A stretch of 64,000 nucleotides of DNA. Source: a virus (Duplodnaviria > Caudoviricetes). Every line of letters begins with the position of its first letter. Positions within the stretch are counted from its first letter, which is position 1. This document shows, piece by piece, positions 5,149 to 54,190 of this stretch. A model generated the notes under the pieces. That model made no database searches. It saw only the letters and a program-made list of their open reading frames with translations, and had not been told where the DNA came from. The position numbers and the translations under genes were made by a program. Location: IMG/VR virus record IMGVR_UViG_3300020152_000024, positions 1,382 through 65,381 of that record. One strand, 5' to 3'.

Positions 5149-5342
5149 ACGGACGGGTCACTGCAACGGAAGAAGTGTTTCATTGGGAAAGTCTCGACGG
5201 TTCGCAACAGTTCAAGATCAGCGCGCACAACGAGGTCCTTGTCATCACCGCAGAGGATAAGGCCCTCGGCACATCGAGCTGCGTCACTCTAGCCACCACG
5301 TCCGCGCGTGCGCTCAAAGCTTGGTTCAACGTGCGACCATGA
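5145..5342 (+). CDS. Hypothetical protein
   Basis: GGGAG RBS; ATGA-coupled to the integrase. Confidence 0.55.
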   Translation: MNGRVTATEEVFHWESLDGSQQFKISAHNEVLVITAEDKALGTSSCVTLATTSARALKAWFNVRP

Positions 5343-6988
5343 TCGCCGCCATCTACGCCCGCTATTCATCGGACCTTCAGTCCGAGCGCTCGATCGATGA
5401 TCAGATCGCGGCGTGCATGACGTTTGCGGCGCAGCGCGGACTGCCAGCGCCGACGATGAACTTCGCCGATGCTGCGATCTCCGGCGCATCGATGGCGACG
5501 CGGCCACAGCTCTTGGCCCTGCTCGACCTCGTGCGCGCGCGGCGCATCTCCATCATCATAGCTGAAGCGATCGACCGCCTCTCGCGCGATCAAGCGGACC
5601 TCCATCTCATTCGCCGCGCCTGCGACGCCAACAACGTGAAGCTCTACACCATCTCCGATGGCGAGGTGTCGGGCATGGTCGCAGGTCTGCAAGGCATCAT
5701 GGCCGAAGCGTTCCTGAAAAATCTCGCCCAGAAGACACGCCGCGGCATGATGGGCGTCGCCCGCGAAGGCCGCATCGCCGGCGGCCTCTCGTTCGGATAT
5801 CGCGCCATCGACGGCCGTCCAGGCGAACGCACGATCGATGAAGCGGAAGCCGGCATCGTGCGGCGCATCTACGCCAGTTATCTCGCCGGCCGTTCCCCCT
5901 ACGCCATCGCGCGCTCGCTCAACGCTGAAGGCGTCGCTGGACCGCGCGGGCGCGCCTGGAAGGTCAACACCATCGCAGGCGATGCGCGCATCGGCGATGG
6001 CATCCTCTGCAACGAACTCTATCGCGGGCGCATCGTCTTCAACCGGCGCCGCTACCAGAAGAACCCCGAAACCGGCCGCCGCTCGAGCTTTTTGAACCCG
6101 CCCGCCGAATGGCTCATCGTCGAAAAGCCCGAACTGCGCATTCTCGATGACGACACGTTCGAAGCGGCGATGGCGATGCGCCGGGGCCTGGGCTCGACCC
6201 CGCTCCAGAACCGGCGCAAGCGGCCTCAACGCCTGCTCTCCGGGATCCTGCGCTGCGCCGCGTGCGGCGGCGCCTTCACCATCATCAACCGTGACCGCAT
6301 GGCCTGCTCCAACGCCATCGCCGGAACCGGCTCATGCGACGTGCGCCAGCGCCTGCCCGCGGCCGTCGCCGAACGGCGCGTGATCGAGGGGCTGAAGCGC
6401 AATCTGCTCAGCCCCGACGCCATCGCCGCCGGCGTGCGCGGCTACCAGGAACAGCGCAAAGCGATGCGCGGAGAAGAGAACGCCCGCCGCCACGAAGCGA
6501 CACGCGGCATCGAAGAAGCCCGCCGCCGCGCCAGCCGAATCGCCGACCAGCTGATCGACACCCCCTCGCCGACGCTCCGGACCAAGCTCGCCGAAGCCGA
6601 AGCGCAGGTCACCGCGTTTGAAGCCGAGCTGGCGGCCATTCCCCCGGCATCGATCGTCGAGCTGCACCCCAACGCCGCCGATGCCTACAAGGCCGTCGTG
6701 GCGACGCTGGAGACGGCCCTAAGCGCCGACGCCGCCCCGGAGATCAGGCAGGCCGTCAGAGGGCTCCTGGAGCGCATAGAAGCCGCTCCAGACGCCGGTG
6801 CGCCCGACGGCTGGTCCCTCGTCATCTACGGCCAGCTCGCGACACTGCTGGCGCTGGCAAACGAAAAAACCCCCGGCGTTTCCGCCGGGGGCCTTCCGCT
6901 GATCTCGAGTGCAATCCCAAGCACTGTAGGGTTGGGTGCGGGAGCCTACACCGGGCGCTACAGTGCGACGGTTCGGCTGGTGGCCTGA
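5339..6988 (+). CDS. int: Large serine recombinase (integrase)
   Basis: YARYSS catalytic motif, DRLSR, recombinase domain, LLSGILRCAACG Zn ribbon, coiled coil. Confidence 0.95.
   Translation: MIAAIYARYSSDLQSERSIDDQIAACMTFAAQRGLPAPTMNFADAAISGASMATRPQLLALLDLVRARRISIIIAEAIDRLSRDQADLHLIRRACDANNVKLYTISDGEVSGMVAGLQGIMAEAFLKNLAQKTRRGMMGVAREGRIAGGLSFGYRAIDGRPGERTIDEAEAGIVRRIYASYLAGRSPYAIARSLNAEGVAGPRGRAWKVNTIAGDARIGDGILCNELYRGRIVFNRRRYQKNPETGRRSSFLNPPAEWLIVEKPELRILDDDTFEAAMAMRRGLGSTPLQNRRKRPQRLLSGILRCAACGGAFTIINRDRMACSNAIAGTGSCDVRQRLPAAVAERRVIEGLKRNLLSPDAIAAGVRGYQEQRKAMRGEENARRHEATRGIEEARRRASRIADQLIDTPSPTLRTKLAEAEAQVTAFEAELAAIPPASIVELHPNAADAYKAVVATLETALSADAAPEIRQAVRGLLERIEAAPDAGAPDGWSLVIYGQLATLLALANEKTPGVSAGGLPLISSAIPSTVGLGAGAYTGRYSATVRLVA
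6864..6891 (-). terminator. Rho-independent terminator for - strand transcription, inside the integrase ORF
   Basis: CCCCCGGCG-TTTC-CGCCGGGGG hairpin with an A6 run on its + strand 5' side. Confidence 0.7.
6921..6966. other. attP site within the integrase 3' end
   Basis: Perfect 9-bp IR GCACTGTAG/CTACAGTGC plus inner GGTG/CACC, symmetric about AG at 6943-6944; left arm TGGGTGCGGGAG resembles the reverse complement of a tRNA 3' end. Confidence 0.75.
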
Positions 6989-7029
6989 GGTGAGTCGCCA
7001 CGTGAAACATTCCGGTTTCACGGCCCCGC

Positions 7030-7335
7030 CTATTTCACCGTCCCGCCCGGCTTTAGCGCCCTGATCTGCGCCAGCAATTTCTCCAAGGGCGGCCGCGTCC
7101 CGAGACGCGCTTTGAGCGGGGCCAGCTCCACTTTCAGCACGCCGCGACGCCGGCAATAGCGACACCGGAGCCGGGCCAACGTCTCGGCTACCCGGCCCTG
7201 CACACCCCAGGCGGCCAAAGCATTGTCCCGCGACACCGCCACATGCCGCCCGCACAAAGTGCAGCTGAACAAGAGCCCATATTCTGTCGGGACGGCGCCA
7301 AAGCGTCCTGGAACCGGGGGCGTCCAACGGGCCAT
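7030..7335 (-). CDS. Zn-finger hypothetical protein
   Basis: CTLC...CRYC pairs. Confidence 0.65.
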   Translation of the reverse strand: MARWTPPVPGRFGAVPTEYGLLFSCTLCGRHVAVSRDNALAAWGVQGRVAETLARLRCRYCRRRGVLKVELAPLKARLGTRPPLEKLLAQIRALKPGGTVK

Positions 7336-7386
7336 GCGCAGCTCATCTGTTCTTGTTACGTTCCAAGGTCAAGCCGCGCGCGGACG

Positions 7387-7421
7387 AAAAGCAGCCCCGC
7401 CACCCTTTCGGACGGCGGGGC
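7387..7421 (-). terminator. Terminator after the late operon
   Basis: GCCCCGCC...GGCGGGGC stem with an A4 run nearby. Confidence 0.55.
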
Positions 7422-7448
7422 CAAGGATGCTGCCATGGAGGGCGCGTT

Positions 7449-34126: not shown

Positions 34127-35680
34127 TTAAGCGGCGGGGCGTGGGATGGTGGCGCGCGGGGCCTGGTGCGCTGCACGCATGAGGATCACGGCGCGCTCTG
34201 CCGGCGGCAGCGCATCGAAAGCGCGCTGCACGTCTTCAGCCGAATGCGCGGGCGTTGAGGGCGCGCCTGCAGAATCAGGCCCCTTCTCGACCGGCTGCAC
34301 GTGCGCCGATGCTGCGCCCTTAGCGGGCGCTGGCGAGGCCAGCACCGCTTCCAGGCGGCGCGTCACTTCGGCGAAGCCGTCGCTCAGCGTCTTCACTTCG
34401 CCGGTGAGGCGTTCGTTGTCGGCCATAACGCGCTTCACGTCTTCCGGCGTTTCCGGCGGCGCGGCGGGCGCGGGCAGAAGCAGTTCGAAGCCGCGCTTTG
34501 AGAATTGATCCAAGACACGCTGCATGCTGGCCTTGTCGGCGTCGGTAAGCGCCTCGCCCTCAGCGGCGATGGAGAGATGCGCGATGGCCACGTCGGCCGC
34601 ACGCGAGACGCCGGCGCTCGCCAAGAGCTGCTCGACCTCTTGGGCCGAGAGCTGCTTGAAGCCCTCGCCGATCAGTTTCAGACCGGCGCGCAGCTTCTCC
34701 GGCACGGCGCTGTCTTCGCCTTCGATGGCGGCTTCCCAGGCGGTGTCGTTGATGATCCAGGCGAGTTGTTGCAGCACGTGCGACAGCTCGCGCACGGTCC
34801 AGAGCGAGCGGCAGACGTGCTGCTCCGGCAGGCCGGCGACGCGCACCAGGCTCTCGCCTTCCGGCAAGCGCGACTGCTCCAGGCGCTCGACAGCAGCCAT
34901 GGCGCTTGCATGCGCCGCGCGCGCCGCTTCGGAGAGAGGATCGGCCTCCGCGCTCGCCGCGGCCGGCGCGGGGTCAGCCGGCGGATCAGCGGCTGGTTCG
35001 GTCACCGGCGCCGCCGGATCGGCTTCCACAGGCGGGTCATCGCCTTTGCCATCGTCGCCCGCGCCTTCCGGTTTTTCGCCGCCAGCGGCCACCGCTTCGG
35101 CAGGCGCAGCGGGCGCAGATACTTGCGTGGCGGTCGCGGCCGTCGGCTGCGTGGCGGGCTTGCTCATGTCGGGCTCCTCTGAACTGGCGAAACGCCACAC
35201 GTCGATTGCGCCGCCAGCGCGCTCGATCTCGTCGAACACGCATTCATCATCGGCCGGGATGTCCACCAGCGACGCTTCGATGACGCGGAATTTGGTAACC
35301 AGGGTTTTGTCGAAGGGATCAACTTCGAGGATGATGAAGCGAACCGAGAACGCCTTGTAGACGCCCTTATCGACCTTCAACCAGGCGACCGGATCGACGA
35401 CATGAACGCCGGCATAAGCGCCCTTTTCGTCGATCCGCTGATCTTCCATCGCGACGCCAACCGCCTGCGGCTGGTGCATCTCGCGAATGTTGCCCCACTT
35501 CCACCAGACGCCGAACGCCTCCTCGATCGCCGGCTGCGAGAGAACGAAGCCGTCGGTGGCGCGGTTGGTGGTGGCGAGATAGCCCCACACCATTTGACGC
35601 TTGGCGTCGCGCCGGGCGATCTCGCCGATGAAGGTGCGCACGACCTGCTTGGGCGCGGCGTTGGCGACATGAGCGCTCAT
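34127..35680 (-). CDS. Prohead protease-scaffold fusion (XkdF-like N-terminus)
   Basis: NIREMHQ..AVG, V.KGVYK.FS, E.SLVD.PA, then low-complexity scaffold. Confidence 0.8.
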   Translation of the reverse strand: MSAHVANAAPKQVVRTFIGEIARRDAKRQMVWGYLATTNRATDGFVLSQPAIEEAFGVWWKWGNIREMHQPQAVGVAMEDQRIDEKGAYAGVHVVDPVAWLKVDKGVYKAFSVRFIILEVDPFDKTLVTKFRVIEASLVDIPADDECVFDEIERAGGAIDVWRFASSEEPDMSKPATQPTAATATQVSAPAAPAEAVAAGGEKPEGAGDDGKGDDPPVEADPAAPVTEPAADPPADPAPAAASAEADPLSEAARAAHASAMAAVERLEQSRLPEGESLVRVAGLPEQHVCRSLWTVRELSHVLQQLAWIINDTAWEAAIEGEDSAVPEKLRAGLKLIGEGFKQLSAQEVEQLLASAGVSRAADVAIAHLSIAAEGEALTDADKASMQRVLDQFSKRGFELLLPAPAAPPETPEDVKRVMADNERLTGEVKTLSDGFAEVTRRLEAVLASPAPAKGAASAHVQPVEKGPDSAGAPSTPAHSAEDVQRAFDALPPAERAVILMRAAHQAPRATIPRPAA

Positions 35681-37071
35681 GCATCGACCTCTTCGTCAGC
35701 AGGTTCGGTGGGTTCGCCTTCGCCGCCATCGCCCTCTTTCGGCTCAGGCTTTGCGCCCAGCTCGACCGGGCCTTTGGCGGTGTAAACGTAGTTTTTGTCG
35801 CCGCCCGGAACGGGCTCTTGACCCAGTTCGTCGCGCACTTCGTTGACCCGGAGGATGCCCGTCTTCACGTAGCGCTCGTTGGCTTCCGACTTCTTGACCG
35901 GGTCGATTTCTTCGGGCGTGATCCACGACCATTCGAGATCGGCAAAGCCCAGCTCGTCTGCGATCACCTCATCAGCGATGCGCTTCCACCAGAGCATCAG
36001 CGGCTCGCGCCCCTCTTCAAGCGCAGCGTTATCGGAGGTCTCAGCGGTCGAGCGGTTGAGCTGGCGGATGAACGGCGTCGGTGAAAGCGAGAAGGCAAAG
36101 CAGACGATGCGCGCCAGCCATTCATCGAACTCGTCTTTGATTGGCGCCGCTTTGAACGGTTCGAACTTCGCCCCGTGCGGACCCCAGATGAGCTTGGCGC
36201 GCTCGGCTGCATTGCCCGACAGAAGTGCGTTGAACCAGGTCTGAAACTCGCCGATCTGTTTGGCGTCCCAGCCTTCCGGCACCGTCGCCATGCCTTGCGG
36301 CAGGTTGCCCTCGGTGAAGTAGGCAAGCTGTGCCATCTGCCGCTGGATCGCGACGTTGACGGTGACGATGATCTGCTCGACTGGCGAGAAGCCATAGACC
36401 TTGCCGGCGCGCTTGTTGCGCGGTGCATAGATCAAATCCAGCGTGGACATATTCGCCCACACATTGCCCTTGATCACCTGCTGATAGGCGGGCGCCGGCG
36501 GCAATGGCGTGCGCCCGGTCTGATCGACCAAGAGCTTGAAAGTGTCGCCCGGCAAAACGTCGAGGCCGATCAGACCACCGCCATAGTTGCGCCGCTTCTC
36601 GATCGCTGGCGCATCCAGGACCAGCAAATCTTCGAGCGCCGCGCGCAGCCAGGTCGCAAACGGCGTGACGCCATCGGGCTTGCGGAAGAACTTCTCGGCC
36701 GCCCGCACATCGGCGTCATGGCGCGCACGCTTCTTGCGCCCCTCGCGCGTCTTGATACGCCAGTCGAGACGTTCGATCTGATCCTTGCGCGTTTCGATGC
36801 AGAGCCGCACCAGCTCGGTGTTGCCGAACGCTTTCAGCGCCGAAAAGCCGAACGGCTCGCCCGCGCGCGGCGTGTAATTGAGGTTGGTCCCAACCGGGAA
36901 ATCGATCGCGCGCGGCGCTTGCGGGTGGGTCGGCGCGACCGGCTCACCGGGCGACATAAAGCCCGTGCCGCCACTGGCGACAGGTCCGCCCGCCTGCTGA
37001 TACTCGAGCGAGCCGACGGCCGCCGACAGCGATGTTGCGACGCCGCCGCCTTTGGAAGCCCGCTCACTCAT
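35677..37071 (-). CDS. Portal protein
   Basis: YGFSPVEQ, YFTEGN.P, NEVR.ELG..PV.GGD. Confidence 0.92.
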   Translation of the reverse strand: MSERASKGGGVATSLSAAVGSLEYQQAGGPVASGGTGFMSPGEPVAPTHPQAPRAIDFPVGTNLNYTPRAGEPFGFSALKAFGNTELVRLCIETRKDQIERLDWRIKTREGRKKRARHDADVRAAEKFFRKPDGVTPFATWLRAALEDLLVLDAPAIEKRRNYGGGLIGLDVLPGDTFKLLVDQTGRTPLPPAPAYQQVIKGNVWANMSTLDLIYAPRNKRAGKVYGFSPVEQIIVTVNVAIQRQMAQLAYFTEGNLPQGMATVPEGWDAKQIGEFQTWFNALLSGNAAERAKLIWGPHGAKFEPFKAAPIKDEFDEWLARIVCFAFSLSPTPFIRQLNRSTAETSDNAALEEGREPLMLWWKRIADEVIADELGFADLEWSWITPEEIDPVKKSEANERYVKTGILRVNEVRDELGQEPVPGGDKNYVYTAKGPVELGAKPEPKEGDGGEGEPTEPADEEVDA

Positions 37072-37087
37072 GCGCGACCTCCCCGCT

Positions 37088-38635
37088 TCATGCGGCGTTG
37101 GCCGCCCGCAATGCTTCGAACCATTCTGCTGACCCGACAGCGACTGCCGGATCCGTGGGCTTACCCGCCGCTTCCGCCTCGGCTTTGGCCTTAGCGTCCG
37201 CCTGCTCACGCATGAGGTCGAAGAGACCCTGGCCCTTCATCGCGTGGCGCAGCGCCTCGATGGCGTAGCGGAGCGCGTCGATGACGTGGTTGTCTTTGTC
37301 GAGCAGAACCGGCAGCACCTCGCCGGTTTTCTTGTCCGTCTTCCAGCTGTAGCGGATCAGCTCGTTGATGGTCGCCGGGCAGTGCTTGGAGTGCACCACG
37401 ATGTCGAAGTTCTTGAGGAACTCGATGCCTTCGGCGACGCTGTCCGGCCCCTTCTTCGAGGGCACAACGCGAAAGCCGCGGCGCACCAGATAAGCGATGG
37501 TGTCTGGCCTCGAGCTGTCGGCCGTGATCGGCCACTGCAGCGCGCCTGGGATGCCGGGAAAGCGCGGGCGGCTTTCATCGCCGAACTTGCCGTTCTCCCA
37601 GCGTGGCGGGACGTGCGTGTCATCGCCCGCGAAGAACGCAGGCAGGTAATCGATCTCGACGCCAACCTTGTGCGCTTCGCGATCGATGTAGAGCGTGCGC
37701 TTCTTCCAATCGATCCAGCAGCGGATAAGCACCGCAGGATCGATGGCGAAACCGAAGTCGCCGCCGAAGTAGAAGCGCTCGACATTGTCCGGCGTTTCGA
37801 ACTCTTCTTCACGCCAGTTACGGAAGACGCGCGCTTCGGAGTTGCGCTTATATTCGCCGAGCCAGACGTGCGCGTAGAGGTCGGGGTCGCGCCGGCGCGC
37901 ATCCTCCATTTCCTCGCGGAGCTTGTCCGGGAAGAAGGGATTGGCGTCCCAATTGATGTTCTTGCCGATCGATCGCGGCGGCGGTCCCGCTGGCGAGCGG
38001 AACATCACATCGACCGGATCGTCTTCGTTCTCCGGGTTCCAGGTCCACCAGATTTCCGAACCGGGCTTGCGGATCGTCGGGACCAGCTTCTGGATCGAGA
38101 CCTTCGAGACGCTGGACGCCTCTTCAACCCAGACGATATCGACGCCCTCGGCGCCCTTCAAACTGTCAGGCCGCGACCACATCCCCTTGAAGGAGAAGCG
38201 CGTGCCGTTGAGGCCGATGATCGACGTCTTGGTCGATTTGTAGAACCAGGAGAGCCCCAGCTCTTTGATCTTGTCTTCGAGCAGCGTTTTGACGCTGTCT
38301 TCGATCGAGTCCTGAATTTCGCGCAGGCACAGGATGCGCAAGCGCCGGCCGCGTCCCAGCAGCACCAGCGCCATCGCGAAGGAATGCGACTTCGCCGAAC
38401 CGCGGCCGCCATAGGCGTAGCGGTGCGCGTACTTGCCGAGCGGCTCGAACAGGAAGCCGAACTCTTCCGGGATGCGCACCCGCCGGCGCGCCTCGCCAGC
38501 ATCGCGCGGATCGCCGCCACGTCGCCGGCGGCCGTCGGGCTGGGTTAGCGCATAGCGGCCGCGATACGGCGCGGGGGCCTGAACTGGCGTTACATCTTCA
38601 TCGATGCGCCGCTTGCGCGCTGGCCTTAGGCGCAT
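37088..38635 (-). CDS. terL: Terminase large subunit, PBSX family (true start probably GTG at 38479)
   Basis: YGGRGSAKS, WVEEA, DFGF..DP, DNHVIDALRYA. Confidence 0.95.
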   Translation of the reverse strand: MRLRPARKRRIDEDVTPVQAPAPYRGRYALTQPDGRRRRGGDPRDAGEARRRVRIPEEFGFLFEPLGKYAHRYAYGGRGSAKSHSFAMALVLLGRGRRLRILCLREIQDSIEDSVKTLLEDKIKELGLSWFYKSTKTSIIGLNGTRFSFKGMWSRPDSLKGAEGVDIVWVEEASSVSKVSIQKLVPTIRKPGSEIWWTWNPENEDDPVDVMFRSPAGPPPRSIGKNINWDANPFFPDKLREEMEDARRRDPDLYAHVWLGEYKRNSEARVFRNWREEEFETPDNVERFYFGGDFGFAIDPAVLIRCWIDWKKRTLYIDREAHKVGVEIDYLPAFFAGDDTHVPPRWENGKFGDESRPRFPGIPGALQWPITADSSRPDTIAYLVRRGFRVVPSKKGPDSVAEGIEFLKNFDIVVHSKHCPATINELIRYSWKTDKKTGEVLPVLLDKDNHVIDALRYAIEALRHAMKGQGLFDLMREQADAKAKAEAEAAGKPTDPAVAVGSAEWFEALRAANAA

Positions 38636-38636
38636 A

Positions 38637-39140
38637 TCAGTTCACCGGGGCGCCATCCTTCGCGCGCACGAACTCCACGTCGAAGCCGCCGTGATGATCT
38701 TCGCCAGCACCCTCGCCTTCACCTTCGCCGAAGAAGGCGCCCAAGCCCACGCCGCGTTTGGCGTAGAAGTCGTTTTGCATCTTCTCGGCTTCGATGATGG
38801 TGTTGCGCGCCTCGACCAGGTTTCCCCGCTCCATGAAGAGGTGGAAGATGCGCTCCATGCGCGCGAGGCGCACCAGCCTGTCGCTCATGCCGATCTCGGC
38901 AACGCCATTCTCGATAGCGGCGCGCGTGCTTTCGTAGAGCGTGATCCACTTCTCAGCGAGCGACTTGCCACGCCGGGCCATCTTCACCGGGTCGTAACCC
39001 TCAACCGTCTGGCGGGTGATGGTGATGGCGAATTCTTCTTTGACCTGGTTGGCGATGGAGGTCGGGCTGTCACGCCAGGCGAGGCGCGTCACGATGAACG
39101 CGCGCATCTCGTCGGTAAGTTTATGGTCGGGCTTGGCCAT
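38637..39140 (-). CDS. DUF2280-like terminase small subunit
   Basis: FIV..LA..DSP...A..VKEEF...ITRQ.VE.YDP; upstream of terL. Confidence 0.8.
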   Translation of the reverse strand: MAKPDHKLTDEMRAFIVTRLAWRDSPTSIANQVKEEFAITITRQTVEGYDPVKMARRGKSLAEKWITLYESTRAAIENGVAEIGMSDRLVRLARMERIFHLFMERGNLVEARNTIIEAEKMQNDFYAKRGVGLGAFFGEGEGEGAGEDHHGGFDVEFVRAKDGAPVN

Positions 39141-39144
39141 CTCG

Positions 39145-39795
39145 TCACACTGCTTTCAGATGACAAGTGCCACAGGCTTGAGCGATGCGGACTGGAGCGA
39201 TCTCAGGACCGGCAAGGATTGCCGACACCATTTCGCGCATCGCCTCCGAGGTTGACCCGTATCGCTTCACCACCCCGACGTGTTCTTCGACATCATGGCC
39301 CTTGATGGCGAACTTATACTCCCCCTCCTGGGTGAAGACGGGATGGCCGTATTCGTCCCTCTCGACTGCGGCGTGATAAAGCTCATGCTCAACCAGGGCG
39401 CAGAAGTCGATGTCGCTGGCGTCGGCGCAATAGGAAGCGTCGAGCGTGATGACGAAATCCGGTTCAGAACCAAACCACTGGCGCAACTGCCACTCGGCTC
39501 GAGCCTTTGCCCATTTGCCCATGGCCATCGGCTTGCCGCGTTCACACTGGCCGACGATGCGGCGCATGTGCCGGCTATTGTCGGCGGTGGTCCAGAGGAA
39601 GCCGATCTGCGCACGCTCCAGGTGCGCGTGATCCCCGTTCCAGAGCGGCGCGCCGGGCGTGATGAAGGTGTCGAACACCCAGGTCTGCAGGTCGGGCGCG
39701 GGCCTAAACTCCCCGTTCGGATCGAGGTCTTCGGGCGGCATCGGTCGGCGCTTCAGCGCGCTGGCCTGCGCCTTCGCCTTGCGCGCTGCGCCCAT
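39145..39795 (-). CDS. Putative phage metallopeptidase
   Basis: ALVEHELYH, GHDVEEH.GVV.RYG. Confidence 0.8.
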   Translation of the reverse strand: MGAARKAKAQASALKRRPMPPEDLDPNGEFRPAPDLQTWVFDTFITPGAPLWNGDHAHLERAQIGFLWTTADNSRHMRRIVGQCERGKPMAMGKWAKARAEWQLRQWFGSEPDFVITLDASYCADASDIDFCALVEHELYHAAVERDEYGHPVFTQEGEYKFAIKGHDVEEHVGVVKRYGSTSEAMREMVSAILAGPEIAPVRIAQACGTCHLKAV

Positions 39796-39891
39796 GGGAT
39801 AATCCACCTGACGGGAGTCGGCGTGAGGTGAGGTCCGCGAGCGTGACGCGCCGCCTACCTAGCCAACCCGGAATATCGAAGTCGGGCACGA

Positions 39892-40053
39892 TCAAGCGAC
39901 GCGGCGAAGCGGCGCGTAGACCGTCGGCGGCGGCTCGCCTTTCGGCATCAGCACCACCACCCGGCACTCAGCGAGACGAACATGGATGCGCGTGCCGTCG
40001 AGTAGCTCGATGCGCTGATTGCCGACGTGATCGATCGCGCGGTCCTTGATCAT
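39892..40053 (-). CDS. Small hypothetical protein
   Basis: GGAG RBS; MIKDRAIDHVGNQRIELLDGT... Confidence 0.5.
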   Translation of the reverse strand: MIKDRAIDHVGNQRIELLDGTRIHVRLAECRVVVLMPKGEPPPTVYAPLRRVA

Positions 40054-40149
40054 AAGTAACTCCAGCACCAGACGGCGGCGCGCCGGGGAGCGCTCCACAA
40101 TGGCCAGGGCAGGCAAGTTCAGCGCAAAGCGCGCCGCCGTCTGATAGGG

Positions 40150-40945
40150 TTTTCACCGCCGCCGCGCTTGCGACGCCTAGGCGCGAGGTGACGCGCGTGG
40201 TTGGCGTCTGGCGCGCGACGGCAGGCCGATCTACGGGCGCAGCGGCGGTGAAACTTGATCGGCGACGCGGCAGCGTATCTCGGTTGCACCGGGCGGAGAG
40301 CCAGGCGCGCGGCCGGAAGCCGCCCTGCTCTCGCTGCAACGGATAGAGGCCGCCGCCTCGCCGAACTGAAGAGGTGGCCCGTCATCTGGGGTGACGGGCC
40401 GCGCATCGCTTGGACCGGCGGGGGTGTTGCGGGTTTGCGATGCGGTCTTGATCGACGGCTACGGCAGGCTTGCCGCTCCATGGCCGGCGTGAAGGCCGTT
40501 CACACGCCGGGCGCACAACTGTCGAACTTTGGAGCGGGGAGTAGGATTTGAACCGACGACCTTCAGCGCGGATGGAAACACGCTGACGCTCTACCAGGCT
40601 GAGCTAGCCCCGCATGTGCAATTGTCTGAGGGGAAGAACCGGCGGCCCCGTCGGCCTGCTCACAGTTCGTCTACATTGGCGTTTGTGCACGAGGTTCGTT
40701 TAAACGGAGTAAACGTCTCCGCTAACCAATCGGAGCGGCGACACTGGCGGGCGCTGATGCGCCAAGTGAGTCACGCACAGAGGAAATCGCGAAACGATCC
40801 TTGCAGGGCAAGGCGTGCAGCCGAGTTCACGGCGCGCAGCGCATCGGTGTGCGCACCGTATCGACGCCGGATCGATACCCTTCACAGCAGGGGTAACGAT
40901 CCGGCGCGCCCTGCAAAAAAATCGCGGGTCGGCTGCGCCGACGTC
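40150..40945. ncRNA. Candidate large structured non-coding RNA region (contains the tRNA-like element)
   Basis: No convincing ORF; many nested long inverted repeats. Confidence 0.4.
40530..40613 (-). tRNA. Atypical tRNA-like gene (Gly-type acceptor stem, UCC in an 8-nt loop, extended anticodon stem)
   Basis: GCGGGGC..TAGCTCAGCCTGGTAGAGC D-arm, GGTTCAAATCC T-loop, encoded 3' TCCA; 24-nt anticodon arm. Confidence 0.75.
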
Positions 40946-41023
40946 ACTTCCCCTCCCCAGTTCCGCGCCACCCCTCCCCGCACGGGGGCGCAAGTGGGGG
41001 ACTTCCCCCATGCCGATCCCCCG

Positions 41024-41052
41024 TTGACACTGCGTCTAGGGGCCCCTATACA
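41024..41052 (+). promoter_or_regulatory. Sigma70-type promoter with TAGGGGCCCCTA operator
   Basis: TTGACA-17-TATACA; palindrome at 41037-41048. Confidence 0.8.
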
Positions 41053-41076
41053 GGATGCATCGAAACGGAGATCGCA

Positions 41077-41499
41077 ATGACCATGACCGACGAACCCCTC
41101 TTCACCGCCGATGATATCGTCAGCGTCTACACCCGCGCCCAAGCGATCGAGGACGGCGTGCTGGTCGATGTCTCGGCGAAAGCCAATGGCATCTGGAAGT
41201 TTCCAGTCGCGCTCACCAGCGCCGCCTGGGAAGATTTCGTGGCCTGGTCGGATGCAGACACGCTCCGCAAGACATGGCCCCAAGACGAAGACGGCCGGCT
41301 CTGGGACGTTCTCTACATGGGCGCTATGGCGGCCCGGAAGCCCACGAACAATCAAGCCGACCGCCGCAGCTTCACCTTCACACGCGTACCCCGTGAAGGC
41401 GCTAGCCGCCGCCCCGTCGAAGTCGAGGCGCTGATCCATTGCGGCCCCGGCGACAATGGCGAGCCGGTCATCACCATCATGCTGCCGCACGAGGACTGA
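41077..41499 (+). CDS. DUF6573-like protein
   Basis: YTRAQAIEDGVLVDVS...GRLWDVL...GPGD.GEPVITIMLP.ED. Confidence 0.75.
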   Translation: MTMTDEPLFTADDIVSVYTRAQAIEDGVLVDVSAKANGIWKFPVALTSAAWEDFVAWSDADTLRKTWPQDEDGRLWDVLYMGAMAARKPTNNQADRRSFTFTRVPREGASRRPVEVEALIHCGPGDNGEPVITIMLPHED

Positions 41500-41569
41500 G
41501 CCTATGGCCGACGAAGCAGCGCCCCCGGCTCCGGCTGGGGGCAACGCCGTTCCGGGCGGACAACATCAG

Positions 41570-41598
41570 TTGACGGAAGCTAGGGGCCCCACTAGTCC
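41570..41598 (+). promoter_or_regulatory. Promoter/operator of the RHH regulator gene
   Basis: TTGACG followed by TAGGGGCCCCAC (41581-41592); hairpin at 41521-41542 upstream. Confidence 0.6.
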
Positions 41599-41605
41599 CG
41601 ACTCC

Positions 41606-41818
41606 ATGGCGAGGAGTGAAGACGCGATCAAGCGGGCCTGGCAAAAGCAGGAGCAGACCGACCCTGCGCGCGCCAACAACAAGGTGCGCCTGAGGCCGGA
41701 AGCGATCGATGATATCGACGCCCTGATGGCGCCAATGGGCGCAGAGACCCGCGCCGGCGTGATCTACCAGCTGATCGAAGACGGCAAGCTGAAGTACGGC
41801 AAGAAGCGCAAGCGCTGA
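41606..41818 (+). CDS. Ribbon-helix-helix-like regulator
   Basis: KVRLRPEAIDDIDALM....TRAGVIYQLI beta-alpha-alpha pattern; basic tail. Confidence 0.6.
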   Translation: MARSEDAIKRAWQKQEQTDPARANNKVRLRPEAIDDIDALMAPMGAETRAGVIYQLIEDGKLKYGKKRKR

Positions 41819-41849
41819 TCGTCTCGCGCGCGCGACATTCACACTAATT

Positions 41850-41900
41850 TAGGGGCCCCTATCTTTTCCGTTTGACACGTCGTCTAGGGGCCCCTATACC
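41850..41900 (+). promoter_or_regulatory. Promoter with two TAGGGGCCCCTA operators
   Basis: Operators at 41850-41861 and 41885-41896; TTGACA(41872)-17-TATACC. Confidence 0.8.
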
Positions 41901-41924
41901 AGATGCATCGAAGGAGCGACACCG

Positions 41925-42257
41925 ATGCAAGCCCAAGCCGTAAACGAGAACGCCAAAGCTTCCCCGCGCTACCTCAGCGCAGCCGAGACGGCGAAGGAAA
42001 TCCGCGCCGCGCTGAAGCAACACTTTCCCAAGCAGAAGTTTTCGGTGCGAACGTCGGTCTATTCGATGGGCGCCTCGATCGACGTGCGCTGGGTTGGCGG
42101 CCCCGATCATGGCGCGGTGAACTCGGTGTGCGCGTTCTTCGCCGGCAGCGAGTTCGACGGCATGACCGACAGCAAGACCTCGAAGAAGGCGGTCATGCTG
42201 CGCGGCGAATGGGTGAAGTTCTGCGCCGATTTCGTCTTCTGCAAGCGGGAGGACTGA
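41925..42257 (+). CDS. LPD29 (large polyvalent protein-associated domain) protein
   Basis: AETAK.IR.ALK..FP..KFSVR...YS.G.SIDV.W..GP, FDGMTD. Confidence 0.78.
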   Translation: MQAQAVNENAKASPRYLSAAETAKEIRAALKQHFPKQKFSVRTSVYSMGASIDVRWVGGPDHGAVNSVCAFFAGSEFDGMTDSKTSKKAVMLRGEWVKFCADFVFCKRED

Positions 42258-42260
42258 TCG

Positions 42261-42512
42261 ATGGCCCTCTCTGAAAAGACCGCCGCCGCCCTCGCCGAGA
42301 TCGAACGCGCCGCCGCTGAAGGCTGCCACACCATCGCGCCGGTGATCATCACGCACTTCTACGGCCGCGCCGCGACGGCCGCTGCGTTCCGGGTCGCGCT
42401 GCGCAAGAAGATCGTTGAAGTCGCCTACACCAGCGCGATGGGAACGCCGGTCTATCGGCCAGCGGGCACCGCCGCCGCCCTTGAAGAGTTGAAGTCAGCG
42501 AGGCTCCAATGA
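42261..42512 (+). CDS. Hypothetical protein
   Basis: GGAGG RBS. Confidence 0.65.
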   Translation: MALSEKTAAALAEIERAAAEGCHTIAPVIITHFYGRAATAAAFRVALRKKIVEVAYTSAMGTPVYRPAGTAAALEELKSARLQ

Positions 42513-42730
42513 TCCACGCCATCGTCCGCGAACTCGAGCTGCACATCGGCGAGGCCCTGCCCTCGCGGCTCTACATCACCAGCGTGACGCCCGTCACCGG
42601 CGGGGTGCTGGTGAAGGCGCAAGACGTGCGCGGCCGCAAGTTCGAGCGCACCGCCCGCTCACCCGCCGACGTGCGCGCGATTCTGTGGTCGCCCGCTCTC
42701 GCCGACACCCGCTTCGCCTACGCGATCTAG
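42509..42730 (+). CDS. Hypothetical protein
   Basis: ATGA coupling. Confidence 0.6.
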   Translation: MIHAIVRELELHIGEALPSRLYITSVTPVTGGVLVKAQDVRGRKFERTARSPADVRAILWSPALADTRFAYAI

Positions 42731-48103: not shown

Positions 48104-48330
48104 GCAGCCTCCCACAAAAACCGCGGCGTCTTAGCCTGAACGGCGCGCGCTCTGTTCGGCACCCGCCGCGCCTTTCCATCGATCGCAAGCTCCGTCAGCA
48201 CGACGCGAAGCGTGGTGTGATCCAGCCCAGTGGCGCGGCCGAGCGCGCCATAGCCAAGCGGCTCCTTGCCGGCGCGGAGCGCAGTCAGGACGGCGCGGCC
48301 ATAGCGGGCGACAAGAGAAGGCGCCGTCAT
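48100..48330 (-). CDS. Small winged-HTH protein
   Basis: LGRATGLDHTTLRVVLTELAIDG. Confidence 0.6.
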   Translation of the reverse strand: MTAPSLVARYGRAVLTALRAGKEPLGYGALGRATGLDHTTLRVVLTELAIDGKARRVPNRARAVQAKTPRFLWEAA

Positions 48331-51300
48331 GCCGCCTCGCCCTCGCTGGAGCTTTCAGCGTCCGCTTCACTTTCGGCGCCCAGCAAGCCGAACAAGGTCG
48401 GCGTCATCGCCTCACGCTCGGCAGAGCCAAGATAATAGCAAGCGTCGCGGAAGCTTTGCGGGTTAAGCTCAGACCCCGCGCCGCGCCTGCCTTTCTTCAC
48501 TGCGACATAGGGCACGGTGCCGAGACCGGCGAACGGATCGAACACTAGCTCACCGGCTTGCGAATACATCGTGATCAGCCGCTCGACGATATCGAGCTGG
48601 AGCGGGCAGACGTGCATCTCGACACGCCGCCGGCTCTGCTCGCTATTGAGCGTCAGCATCCGGTTGATGTCGTGCCACACTTCCGGATGGTGCGAGCCGG
48701 GCGCGATCGACATGAAGGTGGCCGGCAACGCGCCGCGCTTTTCCAGCTCTTCGCCGATGTGCACGTGCGCGTCGTAATCATAGACCTCGGTGAGGCTCCA
48801 CGACGTGAAGGCCTTGGCCAACTTGTCGGGCCCGAGGCGCGCCAACTCTTCGACACTGATCAGGCGGTTGCCGCTGGAGCGCCAAAAGGCGTGCGCGTCG
48901 ATCTGCCAGCGCGCGCGCGAATAGCCGTCGGGGTTGATCCACGCGCCGTCGGCCGACTCCTTCTTCGGCTTCGCCACCGGGTCATCGGCGTAGCCCTTCG
49001 AGCGGTCGCTCTGGGGCTTCCTGAAATGCAGGATGTATTCGGGCATGCCCGAGCCCATCTTGGTGGCGTCCTTGGCGTTCTCCGTCCAGCCGAGGCGATA
49101 GGTCTGGTTGTTCTCGCGCACGACGTCGGTCACAACCGTGACCATGCCCATGTAATCGAAGCCCGCCGCCTGGAAGTGGCGGATCGTGTCGGCATGGAAG
49201 GGATAGACCGTCGGCGCGCCCGTGCCGGCGACAGCGCCGAACACGATGCGGTCCTTGACGTGGATTTCGCAGCGCCGGCCGGGCTTCAACACGCGCAACA
49301 GCTCGCGTGTCAGAAAGCTCATTTGGCCGAAGAATTCTTCGTTGGTGTCAACGTGGCCGAAATCTTCGTAAGCCTCGCAATACTCATACTGCGAGCTGAA
49401 CGGGATCGAGGAGACGATGAGATCGACGCTGTTGTCGTCCATCGCGCGCGCCTCGGCGACGCAATCGTTGTTAGCGATCCAGTAGCGCTCACCCCTCGCC
49501 TCGCGGCGCTCGACGCCCATGGTGCGGGTGAGCTGGCCCACCATCACCTCATGATCCAAACCAAAGCGGCGGATCAGTTCGGCCATGCGGGTCTGCATCT
49601 CGTCATGCAGTTGCCACTTGCGCTTTAAGTCGGCGACGATGAGGCGTTCGGCCTCCGAGTAGATGATGTCGATTCTGCAGGGCCGCTTCTGGCCGAACCG
49701 CTGCACCCGGTGGATGGCCTGGATGAAGTCGTGAAACTTGAAGCCGACGCCGACGAAGATTTCCCAGGCGCAGTGGCGCTGGAAGTTGCAGCCCGCGCCA
49801 GAAAGAATTGGCTTGGTCGCGAAGGTGGCGATCTCGCCTTTCGCGAACGCGATCACGCGCCGCTCGCGTTCGTCAAGGTCCATGGATCCGTGGATGGTGA
49901 CCACGCCATCGCCCAGCGCCGCTTCAATCGCCTCGCGCTCAGCTTCGAGATCATGCCACAAAACGACATGATCGGCGGCCTGTTCGGCGCGCAGCTCGAG
50001 CATCTTCGCCACGCGCGATGGCAGTGAGTCCCGCTTCTCTGCGGCCGCGGCTTGGACGCCCAGCGCCGCATCCCGGAACAGCAGCTTCTGCCCGTCCTTT
50101 TCTTCGCCGGCTTGCTTGTGATCGGTCGGCACTTCGTGCCAGCGCACGTCGAGCGGCGGCAGATTGAAGCCTTCATCGGAGAAGCCGAGGTCGGACGGCT
50201 TTTGCAGCCACACCGACCAGGACTGCACCCAAATCCAGAACTCCTCTTCCTTGTGCGGATAGAGCGTGAGGTCGTTGGCCTTCTCGCTGTTGCGCTGGAA
50301 GAAGCGCGTCAAGGCATGGCCGGTGTCCATCACGCCAAGGAAGCCCGCGTAGTGGATCAGTTCTTTCAGGCGGTTCGGCGAGGGCGTCGCGGTGGCGACG
50401 AAGCGAAAGCGCACGCCCTCGAAGAGCGGGAGAAATTCTTGGTAGGTCTTCGAGCCGAAACTGCGCAGCACCGCAGCTTCGTCGAGCGAGGCGGCGATGA
50501 ACAGGCGCGGATCAAGTTTGCCTTCACGAACGCTCTCATAGTTCGAGAGGTAAATCGTCGGAACGCCAAGGTCGGCATGCCGCTGGCGCGCCTCGGCGTC
50601 GTCATGAAACTCAGCATCCGTGCGGATGAAGACAAGCCGCACCGCGTAATCGCCGGTGAAGCGCTCGCTCGCTTCGCTCGTGAACTCTTGGCGCACGCCC
50701 AGCGGCAAAACGATGAGCGGCGAGCCCGGCTCATAGTTCGCGATCTGGCGCATGATCTCGATTTGCGTCGCGGTCTTGTGCAAGCCGAATGACGCGAACA
50801 CTGCGCGCCGCCCACCCTTCAGCGCCCAACGCACGATCGCACGCGCGTGCGGCGCGAGCGCGGGGTTGATCTCCGCGAGGGGCTCGATGCCTTCAAACGG
50901 CGCGAGCTTGATCTTGCTTTCGAGGAAGCGTCGGTAGTCGCCGCTCATCATCTCGGCAATCGTTGGGATCGGCAGAAACTCAACTACGGCGGTGATGCGC
51001 CCGTCCGTCACGTTCTGGCAGATTGAACAAGCACACTTCGACGGCGGCGGCGCATCGATCGCGCGCCCCGCGTGCGCCACGATCATCTCCATGCCGAGCG
51101 TCGCGAGTGTCGTCTCGCCCTCATCATCGATGAAGAAGCCGCCGCGCTCGGTCAGCGAAGCGAAGGCGTCATCTGTCCAGGCCGGCCACTTGCCCCACGC
51201 GCTGCCCACGTCCCACAGATGCAGCACCGCCGCATCGATAAGCTCACGCTCCAGCGCGAGCATTCTGCCCGGCCCCGCGAAGGCTTCTTGCGCACGCGCA

Positions 51301-51407
51301 AGCACCGTCTGGATTTTTGCGACGGGCGACGGCGCATCAGCGTGCGCCTCAATGGCGCTCTCCAGCGCCCCGCCCTTCAATCCTTTTTTCGCCCCCCGCT
51401 TGGCCAT
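48327..51407 (-). CDS. SF2 helicase-like::N4/N6 DNA methyltransferase fusion with N-terminal extension
   Basis: FGLHKT, LDEAA, TATPSPN, QAIHRVQRFGQ; then VSSIPF and DPFAGLGT (beta-class order). Confidence 0.88.
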   Translation of the reverse strand: MAKRGAKKGLKGGALESAIEAHADAPSPVAKIQTVLARAQEAFAGPGRMLALERELIDAAVLHLWDVGSAWGKWPAWTDDAFASLTERGGFFIDDEGETTLATLGMEMIVAHAGRAIDAPPPSKCACSICQNVTDGRITAVVEFLPIPTIAEMMSGDYRRFLESKIKLAPFEGIEPLAEINPALAPHARAIVRWALKGGRRAVFASFGLHKTATQIEIMRQIANYEPGSPLIVLPLGVRQEFTSEASERFTGDYAVRLVFIRTDAEFHDDAEARQRHADLGVPTIYLSNYESVREGKLDPRLFIAASLDEAAVLRSFGSKTYQEFLPLFEGVRFRFVATATPSPNRLKELIHYAGFLGVMDTGHALTRFFQRNSEKANDLTLYPHKEEEFWIWVQSWSVWLQKPSDLGFSDEGFNLPPLDVRWHEVPTDHKQAGEEKDGQKLLFRDAALGVQAAAAEKRDSLPSRVAKMLELRAEQAADHVVLWHDLEAEREAIEAALGDGVVTIHGSMDLDERERRVIAFAKGEIATFATKPILSGAGCNFQRHCAWEIFVGVGFKFHDFIQAIHRVQRFGQKRPCRIDIIYSEAERLIVADLKRKWQLHDEMQTRMAELIRRFGLDHEVMVGQLTRTMGVERREARGERYWIANNDCVAEARAMDDNSVDLIVSSIPFSSQYEYCEAYEDFGHVDTNEEFFGQMSFLTRELLRVLKPGRRCEIHVKDRIVFGAVAGTGAPTVYPFHADTIRHFQAAGFDYMGMVTVVTDVVRENNQTYRLGWTENAKDATKMGSGMPEYILHFRKPQSDRSKGYADDPVAKPKKESADGAWINPDGYSRARWQIDAHAFWRSSGNRLISVEELARLGPDKLAKAFTSWSLTEVYDYDAHVHIGEELEKRGALPATFMSIAPGSHHPEVWHDINRMLTLNSEQSRRRVEMHVCPLQLDIVERLITMYSQAGELVFDPFAGLGTVPYVAVKKGRRGAGSELNPQSFRDACYYLGSAEREAMTPTLFGLLGAESEADAESSSEGEAA

Positions 51408-51794: not shown

Positions 51795-52409
51795 ATGAAG
51801 GTCGGGGATTGGATCGCGGCGCAACGGCAGAAACGCCGACCGCCAGAGAACACTCAGAAGTGGCTGGGGGAGCAGGTTGGCGTAGCGCAAACGACCATTT
51901 CCAAATGGGAAAAAGGCAAGAGCGATGTCTCCCGCGAAGAGCTAGCCCGTTTGGAGGATGTCTTTGGAACTACTTACGCTGCTGACAAATTTTCTCCACT
52001 TGCGGTAGCACAGCCGCTAAGGCTCCCGGTCATGGGGATAGTTCGCGCCCGGCAGTTGGTAGAACAAGCGCCTCTCGACGCGCTTGAATACATTGCCGCG
52101 CCGCCCGGAACACCTGAAGGCGCCCGTTGCCTCATCGTTCGGGGCGCATCATTTCCTCCCCACAAGGATGGGACCGCCCTCGTCTTCTGGGCTTTCGTTG
52201 AAGACCCTGCCGCTTTCCTGGGCGAACTCTGCTTCGTGCGCCTGCTCGACGGCGCCGAGTATGTCCGCGAGATCGCCCGCGGCGACACGCCCAAAACCTG
52301 GACCCTGATCAGCCCCGTGGGCGAACCCACGATCCGCAATGTCGAGATCGAGTGCGCCGCCCTGATCGAGATGACCGTCCGCAGGCCGCAGTGGATAACG
52401 CCTGCTTAG
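51795..52409 (+). CDS. cI: CI-like repressor (XRE HTH plus S24-like domain)
   Basis: TQKWLGEQVGVAQTTISKWEKG; V.G.S..P. Confidence 0.85.
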   Translation: MKVGDWIAAQRQKRRPPENTQKWLGEQVGVAQTTISKWEKGKSDVSREELARLEDVFGTTYAADKFSPLAVAQPLRLPVMGIVRARQLVEQAPLDALEYIAAPPGTPEGARCLIVRGASFPPHKDGTALVFWAFVEDPAAFLGELCFVRLLDGAEYVREIARGDTPKTWTLISPVGEPTIRNVEIECAALIEMTVRRPQWITPA

Positions 52410-54161: not shown

Positions 54162-54190
54162 TTGCATCGCGGTCTAGGGGCCCCTATACC
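54162..54190 (+). promoter_or_regulatory. Promoter with TAGGGGCCCCTA operator for the recombination operon
   Basis: TTGCAT-17-TATACC; palindrome at 54175-54186. Confidence 0.75.

Follow-up and report, generated by a model that had tools for sequence, protein, structure and literature searches.

A hairpin-rich, non-coding stretch between a tRNA-like gene and the packaging genes of a temperate phage as a candidate leader RNA

The subject of this analysis is a non-coding stretch of 476 nucleotides (nt), positions 40054-40529 of a window of 64,000 nt, the window being the whole piece of DNA that was analyzed and nearly the whole of a 65,381-base IMG/VR virus record which has terminal repeats and is rated complete. 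The stretch belongs to a temperate soil phage with a GC content of about 65%, is filled from end to end by hairpins and has exceptional fold stability. Read from right to left on the minus strand, the order of elements is the tRNA-like gene, the 476-nt stretch, an open reading frame (ORF) of 53 amino acids (aa), and the genes for a metallopeptidase, a DUF2280 protein, the large terminase and the portal protein. The reading favored here, tentatively and with somewhat less than an even chance of being correct, is that the stretch is a lineage-specific, cis-acting, structured and untranslated 5' leader of the packaging (late) operon, transcribed from the minus strand. The original prediction for this DNA had described a non-coding and abnormally structured region directly 3' of the tRNA-like gene (in the sense of the minus strand) and preceding the packaging genes, and that description is borne out.

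The predicted fold of the minus strand, in the minimum free energy (MFE) structure as well as in the centroid structure, is a row of seven mostly independent hairpins, which are numbered H1 to H7 in the direction of that strand (Table 1). The only multibranch loop inside a hairpin is found in H6, as predicted from a single sequence by folding limited to nested helices. H3-H7 are common to the MFE and centroid structures, and H4-H7 persist when the whole 1000-nt region is folded. The strongest helix is that of H7, the core of which is a perfect inverted repeat of 15 base pairs (bp) (40069-40083/40129-40143). H7 ends 2-3 nt before the sequence GGAG (40060-40063), which is read as the ribosome-binding site of the 53-aa ORF, and the ORF itself starts 13 nt after the hairpin. 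The two sides of the H6 stem (40151-40167/40237-40253) are 17 nt long and 94% complementary, and on the minus strand they form 17 contiguous pairs of which one is G-U; the arms of H6 and H7 have the motif CGCCGCCG in common. The base of H5 (40259-40265/40358-40364) encloses the pairs GTTGCA/TGCAAC and AGAGC/GCTCT, and its arms of 43 nt are 74% complementary. All six helices listed in the original prediction are present where it had placed them, and H7, which lies just outside the positions it covered, had been missed.

Table 1. Features of the stretch and of its surroundings, with positions in the window (z, MFE compared with dinucleotide shuffles; fractions, shuffles as good as the native sequence)
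Feature	Positions	Strand	Remarks
Non-coding structured DNA 5' of the tRNA-like gene	40614-41020	-	z -4.0 for 40614-41076; no codon periodicity
tRNA-like gene, directly 5' of the stretch	40530-40613	-	ARAGORN 'tRNA-??? (tcca)'; Rfam tRNA 42.7 bits
Non-coding hairpin-rich stretch, 476 nt, from the tRNA-like gene to the start codon of the 53-aa ORF	40054-40529	-	proposed leader RNA
H1: 8-bp stem (40484-40491/40503-40510), 11-nt loop	40484-40510	-	z -1.7, 12/200; not significant alone
H2: 6-bp stem, 4-nt loop	40461-40476	-	z -1.8, 12/200; not significant alone
H3: 8-bp stem (40402-40409/40437-40444), 27-nt C-rich loop	40402-40444	-	40400-40446: z -3.5, 0/200
H4: perfect 9-bp G+C-rich stem (40376-40384/40392-40400), 7-nt loop	40376-40400	-	40374-40402: z -4.1, 0/200
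H5: irregular 106-nt arm, stacked helices of 7, 8, 4, 5, 5 and 6 bp	40259-40364	-	40257-40366: z -4.3, 0/200
H6: 17-bp basal stem, 69-nt interior with two sub-hairpins	40151-40253	-	40149-40255: z -4.5, 0/200
H7: 15 perfect pairs, 18-19 with G-U, 45-nt interior	40067-40145	-	40065-40147: z -6.1, 0/200
First ORF after the stretch, 53 aa, ATG at 40053	39892-40053	-	GC by codon position 0.75/0.42/0.81 (coding-type)
Phage metallopeptidase gene (PF18894)	39145-39807	-	Pfam
DUF2280	38637-39140	-	Pfam
Large terminase	37088-38635	-	Pfam
Portal	35677-37209	-	Pfam

The stability of the fold was compared with that of dinucleotide shuffles of the same sequence, and the z-scores given throughout are those of the MFE against such shuffles. 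On the minus strand, z is -5.58 for 40120-40530 and -6.49 for 40040-40530, with none of 100 shuffles as stable in either case, and -7.0 for 40054-40529 (30 shuffles). Over this range, in which no shuffle matched the native sequence, the region folds better than chance. An interval of 1000 nt, 40040-41039, has a z of -6.85 (20 shuffles). When the hairpins of the minus strand are folded singly, five of them (H3-H7) are more stable than all 200 of their shuffles, with z between -3.5 and -6.1; among the helices listed beforehand, those of H3-H6 stand individually, whereas the pair at 40484/40503 in H1 falls within chance. The same statistic was measured elsewhere in the phage because high-GC coding DNA can also score below zero. 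Forty-six random windows of 411 nt on the minus strand of the same phage have a mean z of -0.72 (standard deviation 1.23, minimum -4.49), and four other gaps of the phage, folded on both strands, range from +1.8 to -3.6. Of all the regions measured in the phage, 40054-40529 has the most extreme value.

Coding capacity is absent from the stretch, and codon periodicity is lacking throughout the interval of about 1 kb between 40054 and 41076. GC by codon position is flat in the ORF at 40119-40481 (0.72/0.71/0.69), compared with approximately 0.65-0.77/0.43-0.47/0.76-0.82 in the flanking genes. The two longest ORFs of the stretch, of 120 and 123 aa and both on the minus strand, have no Pfam match, and the 120-aa ORF (40119-40481) has no match at E <= 0.001 among 1.84 billion representative proteins. 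The translations of the ORFs in the stretch are rich in arginine. The claim that no credible ORF is present here stands on the flat codon-position GC, the lack of Pfam matches and the lack of homologues of the 120-aa ORF.

The tRNA-like gene that precedes the stretch is of the tRNA-Gly(UCC) type and has 7 extra nt, giving an anticodon stem of 8 bp and a loop of 8 nt (UUUCCAUC). In an alignment with seven related phage tRNA-Gly genes, these have a 5-bp anticodon stem and a 7-nt loop, and the Rfam tRNA model assigns 12 nt, in place of 5, to the anticodon loop of the tRNA-like gene. To judge from this arm, normal decoding by the gene product is unlikely. The 5' flank and the acceptor stem are common to the tRNA-like gene and the tRNA-Gly of another phage locus (L035), and a degenerate pattern describing the odd anticodon arm gave no second example in IMG/VR (0 matches). 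An array of tRNAs or pseudo-tRNAs was rejected as a description of the region, as ARAGORN reports one gene in the window and 40533-40613 is the sole match of the Rfam tRNA model at E <= 10. The DNA on the 5' side of the gene, 40614-41020, has structures of its own on the minus strand, namely a 16-bp hairpin at 40865-40906 (z -5.2 for 40862-40909) and, at about 40913-40944, a second one that is followed by U7. It also contains runs of GGGGAGGGG (on the plus strand CCCCTCCCC, twice), which could form a G-quadruplex.

Gene context alone favors the minus strand as the one that would be transcribed, the tRNA-like gene and all of the downstream genes being on that strand with no plus-strand gene to the left. 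We infer the following course of events. Transcription would begin within 40614-41020, the non-coding DNA on the 5' side of the tRNA-like gene, and the transcript would pass through the tRNA-like element and then through the seven hairpins, ending with H5-H7 and their basal stems of 15-19 pairs. It would reach the ribosome-binding site of the 53-aa ORF 2-3 nt past the last hairpin and would continue through the metallopeptidase, DUF2280, terminase and portal genes. Host RNase P and the 3' tRNA-processing nuclease would presumably excise the tRNA-like element, after which the hairpin block would form a new 5' end for the late mRNA. The block would then most likely act in cis, where it could protect the message from decay that depends on the 5' end. 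Alternatively, the hairpins could offer double-stranded processing sites, or they could set the level of transcription (by modulating elongation) and of translation that reaches the packaging genes.

Leaders of two known kinds invite comparison with the proposed one. The put RNAs of phage HK022 (putL and putR) are about 70 nt long, consist of two stem-loops and act on downstream terminators. Like these RNAs and the nut sites of lambda, the stretch would be a structured RNA in a phage operon leader upstream of controllable genes, but it differs from put RNAs in being 476 nt long with seven hairpins and in having no terminator-like site found behind it. A terminator scan of 39000-42000 reported two sites, both at 413xx-416xx, compared with 2.2 expected from shuffles, and none in 40054-40529. 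Intrinsic terminators, whether as a cluster or as a terminator gate, were rejected as an identity for the stretch, which has no G+C-rich hairpin followed by a U-tract; the tail after H4 is ACCUCUUCAGUU, with no true U-tract, and H4 is not called as a terminator. No put- or nut-named family is among the Rfam matches, although Rfam may lack a model of that kind. The original prediction had offered a late-operon leader in the form of a put-like antiterminator, of which the leader is the part that best fits the anatomy and the put-like activity is an analogy. The second comparison is with the RNase III sites of T7 and lambda and with the ompA-type 5' stabilizer, which resemble the stems of 17-19 bp that the stretch would place at the 5' end of the mRNA after processing, with a hairpin immediately ahead of the ribosome-binding site. 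Such leaders need far fewer than seven hairpins over 476 nt.

Searches for known families and for homologues covered several collections. At gathering thresholds, only the tRNA-like gene scored against Rfam in the whole window, and at E <= 10 the interval 39800-41300 gave a match to the tRNA model along with five further matches at chance level, none of them to GOLLD or ROOL. Judged by these scans, the stretch belongs to no curated Rfam family and is not a GOLLD or ROOL RNA, a ribozyme or a remnant of a group II intron. A blastn search of 50,697 GenBank phages returned 13 matches, all of which cover the tRNA only; an exact 25-nt hairpin pattern had no match in IMG/VR, and no relatives came to light when IMG/VR was scanned with one protein at a time, the metallopeptidase or DUF6573. 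Loci anchored on the terminase were then collected from IMG/VR (80), from JGI and ENA metagenomes (80) and from GTDB genomes (80), and together with 80 IMG/VR loci anchored on the metallopeptidase they amount to 320 loci. None of the 240 terminase-anchored loci carries the stretch, nhmmer matching a tRNA only (in L035); their terminases are at most 57% identical to that of the phage, and none has the 53/74-aa ORF, the metallopeptidase, DUF2280 or DUF6573. In the 80 metallopeptidase-anchored loci, nhmmer matched parts of tRNAs only (E 0.0046 in L283 and 0.072 in L252). When 74 upstream regions were clustered, the window stood by itself. The matches obtained from five related genomes and from 401 sampled alphaproteobacterial genomes were single, short and at chance level; those in 17 of the 401 are 25-66 nt long, with E between 2.7e-6 and 8e-4. 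The closest relatives of the terminase (75-78% identity, P0002-P0004) are on record from Logan only, and the longest contig on record for P0004 and for a metallopeptidase relative, P0206, is 50,104 nt. The collection of homologues foreseen in the original prediction thus came back empty for the GenBank phages, the 320 loci and the 5 + 401 genomes.

The neighborhood of the stretch, as opposed to its sequence, does recur in other phages. A related metallopeptidase is followed by DUF2280 in 77 of the 80 IMG/VR loci (L242-L321), and 18 of the 80 have at least one tRNA gene (Met, Gly, Thr, Ser, Asn or Tyr) on the same strand 0.6-2.9 kb upstream of the metallopeptidase, so that a tRNA ahead of this operon is a recurring layout. 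Rhizobium phage RHph_TM3_3_3 (MN988468.1 1-7055, L322) carries an annotated NusG-like antiterminator, a helix-turn-helix gene, a tRNA-Met, two small ORFs, the metallopeptidase, DUF2280 and the terminase. From this annotation, elongation control may act just upstream of the operon in at least one relative. RHph_TM3_3_3 and the IMG/VR loci thus have the same order of tRNA, gap, metallopeptidase, DUF2280 and terminase as the window, but their gaps are unrelated in sequence, some contain small ORFs, and their tRNAs are ordinary; RHph_TM3_3_3 also has its NusG-like gene upstream, which the phage of the window lacks. In several of these gaps, the small ORFs have a coding-like GC pattern. Another locus, L318, carries a Proteo-phage-1 RNA (RF03044) at 923-1002 (74.3 bits) beside a tRNA-Gly upstream of the metallopeptidase. 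This small phage RNA motif resembles the stretch in context, but it measures just 80 nt, is located on the 5' side of the tRNA in L318 and has no match in the window at E <= 10. A leader controlled by a NusG paralogue was rejected for the window, there being no NusG-like gene in the 65-kb record.

Several observations weigh against the leader reading. Because no homologue was found in any of the collections searched, GenBank phages, loci and genomes alike, the helices have no support from covariation, and the structure is a thermodynamic prediction only. Behind the tRNA, the gaps of seven related loci have no sequence in common with the stretch and, the tRNA aside, only a few short matches between some pairs among themselves, and their fold z-scores are mixed (+3.1 to -4.3 over 16 windows). 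A search at E <= 1 for the NusG-like domain PF02357, to which control genomes responded, gave no match anywhere in the 65-kb record. Since the gaps are unrelated, the z-scores mixed and a NusG-like gene absent here, the slot behind the tRNA is variable and its filling in this phage lineage-specific. No promoter or terminator was recognized on the minus strand. Only one sequencing run, probably the source of the record, contains the stretch, and no RNA run is listed as containing it; at 80% likeness that run shows no variants and yields, besides the source contig, four fragments of 35-41 nt that are unrelated. Long and near-perfect Watson-Crick arms are, in addition, typical of young DNA palindromes. 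In a regression of MFE on GC over 319 windows of 400 nt, the segment 40001-40400 takes third place (z -2.5) on the plus strand and fifth place (z -2.2) on the minus strand; the answer of this cruder control is weaker, the segment being high but not unique.

The choice of strand is a further point on that side. The original prediction held that the transcribed strand could not be told from the helices, and the native energies of the two strands are indeed alike (-257 vs -263 kcal/mol). The z-scores do differ, at -7.0 on the minus strand vs -2.6 on the plus strand, but this asymmetry arises because the shuffles of the G+U-rich plus strand also fold well and not from the native energies. Wobble pairs lean slightly to the minus strand, where the flaw in the 17-bp stem of H6 is a G-U pair (a C-A mismatch on the plus strand) and where H5 and H7 gain G-U pairs. 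The wobble test is not decisive, and G-U pairs in total number 10 of 162 on the minus strand vs 16 of 173 on the plus strand, where H4 also extends better.

It is possible, though unlikely, that the stretch is functionless or selfish DNA, made up of young palindromic insertions (MITE- or REP-like, that is, resembling miniature inverted-repeat transposable elements or repetitive extragenic palindromes) or of decayed sequence, and tolerated in what is the late region's sole large gap. Arms as long and near-perfect as those found (15/15 and 16/17) look like recent inverted duplications, the motif held in common by H6 and H7 fits such an origin, and so does the status of the stretch as an orphan whose position is occupied in relatives by unrelated sequence or small ORFs. 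Against this reading, the phage has no second copy of a hairpin, its longest matches being 13-14 nt and GC-rich; the 5 related and 401 sampled alphaproteobacterial genomes contain no repeat family; and no target-site duplications are seen flanking H6 or H7. The seven hairpins, moreover, occupy the full length of the gap, and their row ends precisely at the ribosome-binding site. A repeated element of the MITE or REP type finds no support in the single copy in the phage and the short single matches in 17 of the 401 sampled genomes. A retron or diversity-generating element was rejected, there being no long direct repeats and no reverse transcriptase among the proteins scanned, which do not include all genes.

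Less probable again is a site that works as DNA, with cruciforms or protein-binding palindromes belonging to a pac region, a replication origin or a recombination site near the terminase. The stretch lies some 0.9-1.4 kb upstream of the DUF2280 and terminase genes, and the Watson-Crick cores of its helices are symmetric with respect to strand, as a DNA site would allow. The pac sites so far known, however, are found within the small-terminase gene or directly at it, and the operators that are known are short. The word GATCAAG occurs four times within 39890-40453 (564 bp), compared with 25 times in the whole 64 kb; three of the four copies are on the minus strand, within or beside the segments that link hairpins and at the 53-aa ORF's start codon. 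The cluster was spotted post hoc, and coding frames often contain the word. The longer form CTTGATCGRCG is found exactly at only two positions in the window, 40254 and 40447, which are 193 bp apart, but there are no iterons or longer direct repeats. Arms that are 45-69 nt apart and have structured interiors look more like RNA, and the only recombinase found is of the serine type and lies 33 kb away. An attP site for a tRNA-targeting integrase was rejected with reference to the same distant serine recombinase.

It is improbable, and slightly more so than a DNA site, that the stretch is a free-standing large non-coding RNA which is released from the transcript, acts in trans and is a new counterpart of GOLLD and ROOL. 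Its size would suit such an RNA, being 476 nt or, with the structured 5' part and the tRNA-like module, about 1 kb, over which the 1000-nt fold has the z of -6.85 given above. The next ORF begins 13 nt after H7 with no 3' terminator in between, and the predicted fold is a plain row of hairpins with its sole in-hairpin multibranch loop in H6. The specific form in which the tRNA-like element and the hairpin block make up a new lineage-specific RNA, some 0.5-1 kb in length, that is freed from the late transcript and works in trans is a little more doubtful still. Such an RNA could be a cofactor of the adjacent packaging machinery, by analogy with the pRNA of phi29, or a decoy against host defenses that target tRNAs, or, by analogy with the tRNA-linked GOLLD and ROOL, it could have a structural or scaffold role.

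The relation to GOLLD (RF01998) and ROOL (RF03087) is one of context. In a paper on these RNAs (PMC5737381), they are stated to occur often near tRNAs and in prophages, as the original prediction had said, and the stretch resembles them in being several hundred nt long, non-coding, carried by a temperate phage and situated beside a tRNA-type gene. The same paper gives ROOL six multistem junctions as well as three pseudoknots (PMC5737381). The proximity to a tRNA is context held in common and not membership. Known large RNAs of this kind are conserved families, whereas no conservation was found for the stretch and no covariance model of GOLLD or ROOL matches it at E <= 10; GOLLD and ROOL also stand alone, while the stretch abuts an ORF. 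Membership in GOLLD, ROOL or another Rfam family is not supported by the Rfam scans, in which, chance-level matches aside, only the tRNA scored at either threshold.

A missed protein-coding gene, such as the 120-aa ORF at 40119-40481 on the minus strand or a 98-aa ORF at 40255-40551 on the plus strand, is close to refuted, for although ORFs of 98-123 aa are open in the stretch, their codon-position GC is flat (the sole test for the 98-aa ORF), their arginine-rich translations are those of out-of-frame readings of high-GC DNA, and the protein searches described above found nothing for the minus-strand ORFs.

The stretch is real and statistically striking and falls in no described family; as one orphan sequence, it is a candidate of moderate interest. 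If it is a working RNA, it would be a further case in which phages have a large, structured RNA next to a gene of the tRNA type where a key operon begins, and to our knowledge no such RNA is known in high-GC phages of the alphaproteobacterial type. Together with the aberrant tRNA-like gene, the leader would point to tRNA-style processing as a means of defining the 5' end of a late mRNA. Its present worth is that of a candidate with strong folding statistics and not that of an established new RNA class.

Among the genes around the stretch, the 53-aa ORF beginning at ATG 40053 is the source record's own gene call and is an orphan, its sole database entry being the window's own protein, with no Pfam or PHROG match. 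The phage encodes a large serine recombinase at 5321-6988 and a helix-turn-helix (HTH) repressor-like protein at 51795-52409, along with a fusion of ERF and a 5'-3' exonuclease, an SNF2 helicase and two DNA methylases. To the right of the gap, plus-strand genes begin at 41077 with DUF6573, which is followed by a protein with an LPD29 ('large polyvalent protein associated') domain; these two make up an island at 41077-42730 that adjoins the gap. A 1026-aa protein with an N6/N4 DNA methylase domain is encoded nearby on the minus strand (48327-51407), and the island and this protein together resemble what we take to be an early anti-restriction module.

A promoter-like unit, TTGACA-N17-TATACA with the perfect palindrome TAGGGGCCCCTA in its spacer, is repeated on the plus strand (41024-41064, 41850-41861, 41872-41912 and 54172-54189). 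The palindrome has four exact copies in the window, compared with a chance expectation of 0.5 matches at up to 2 mismatches, and the copies stand ahead of plus-strand genes, the first of them filling the right edge of the 1-kb gap. From their arrangement, these units are probably a set of repressor-controlled early promoters and operators. The stretch itself was rejected as an operator array of this kind, none of the four copies of TAGGGGCCCCTA lying inside 40054-41020. Elsewhere in the phage, the second most stable fold in the random sample (z -4.49) is that of 6700-7110 on the minus strand, which extends from the last part of the serine recombinase gene into the gap that follows and might contain attP or a terminator; the gap alone, 6989-7448, has a z of only -1.8.

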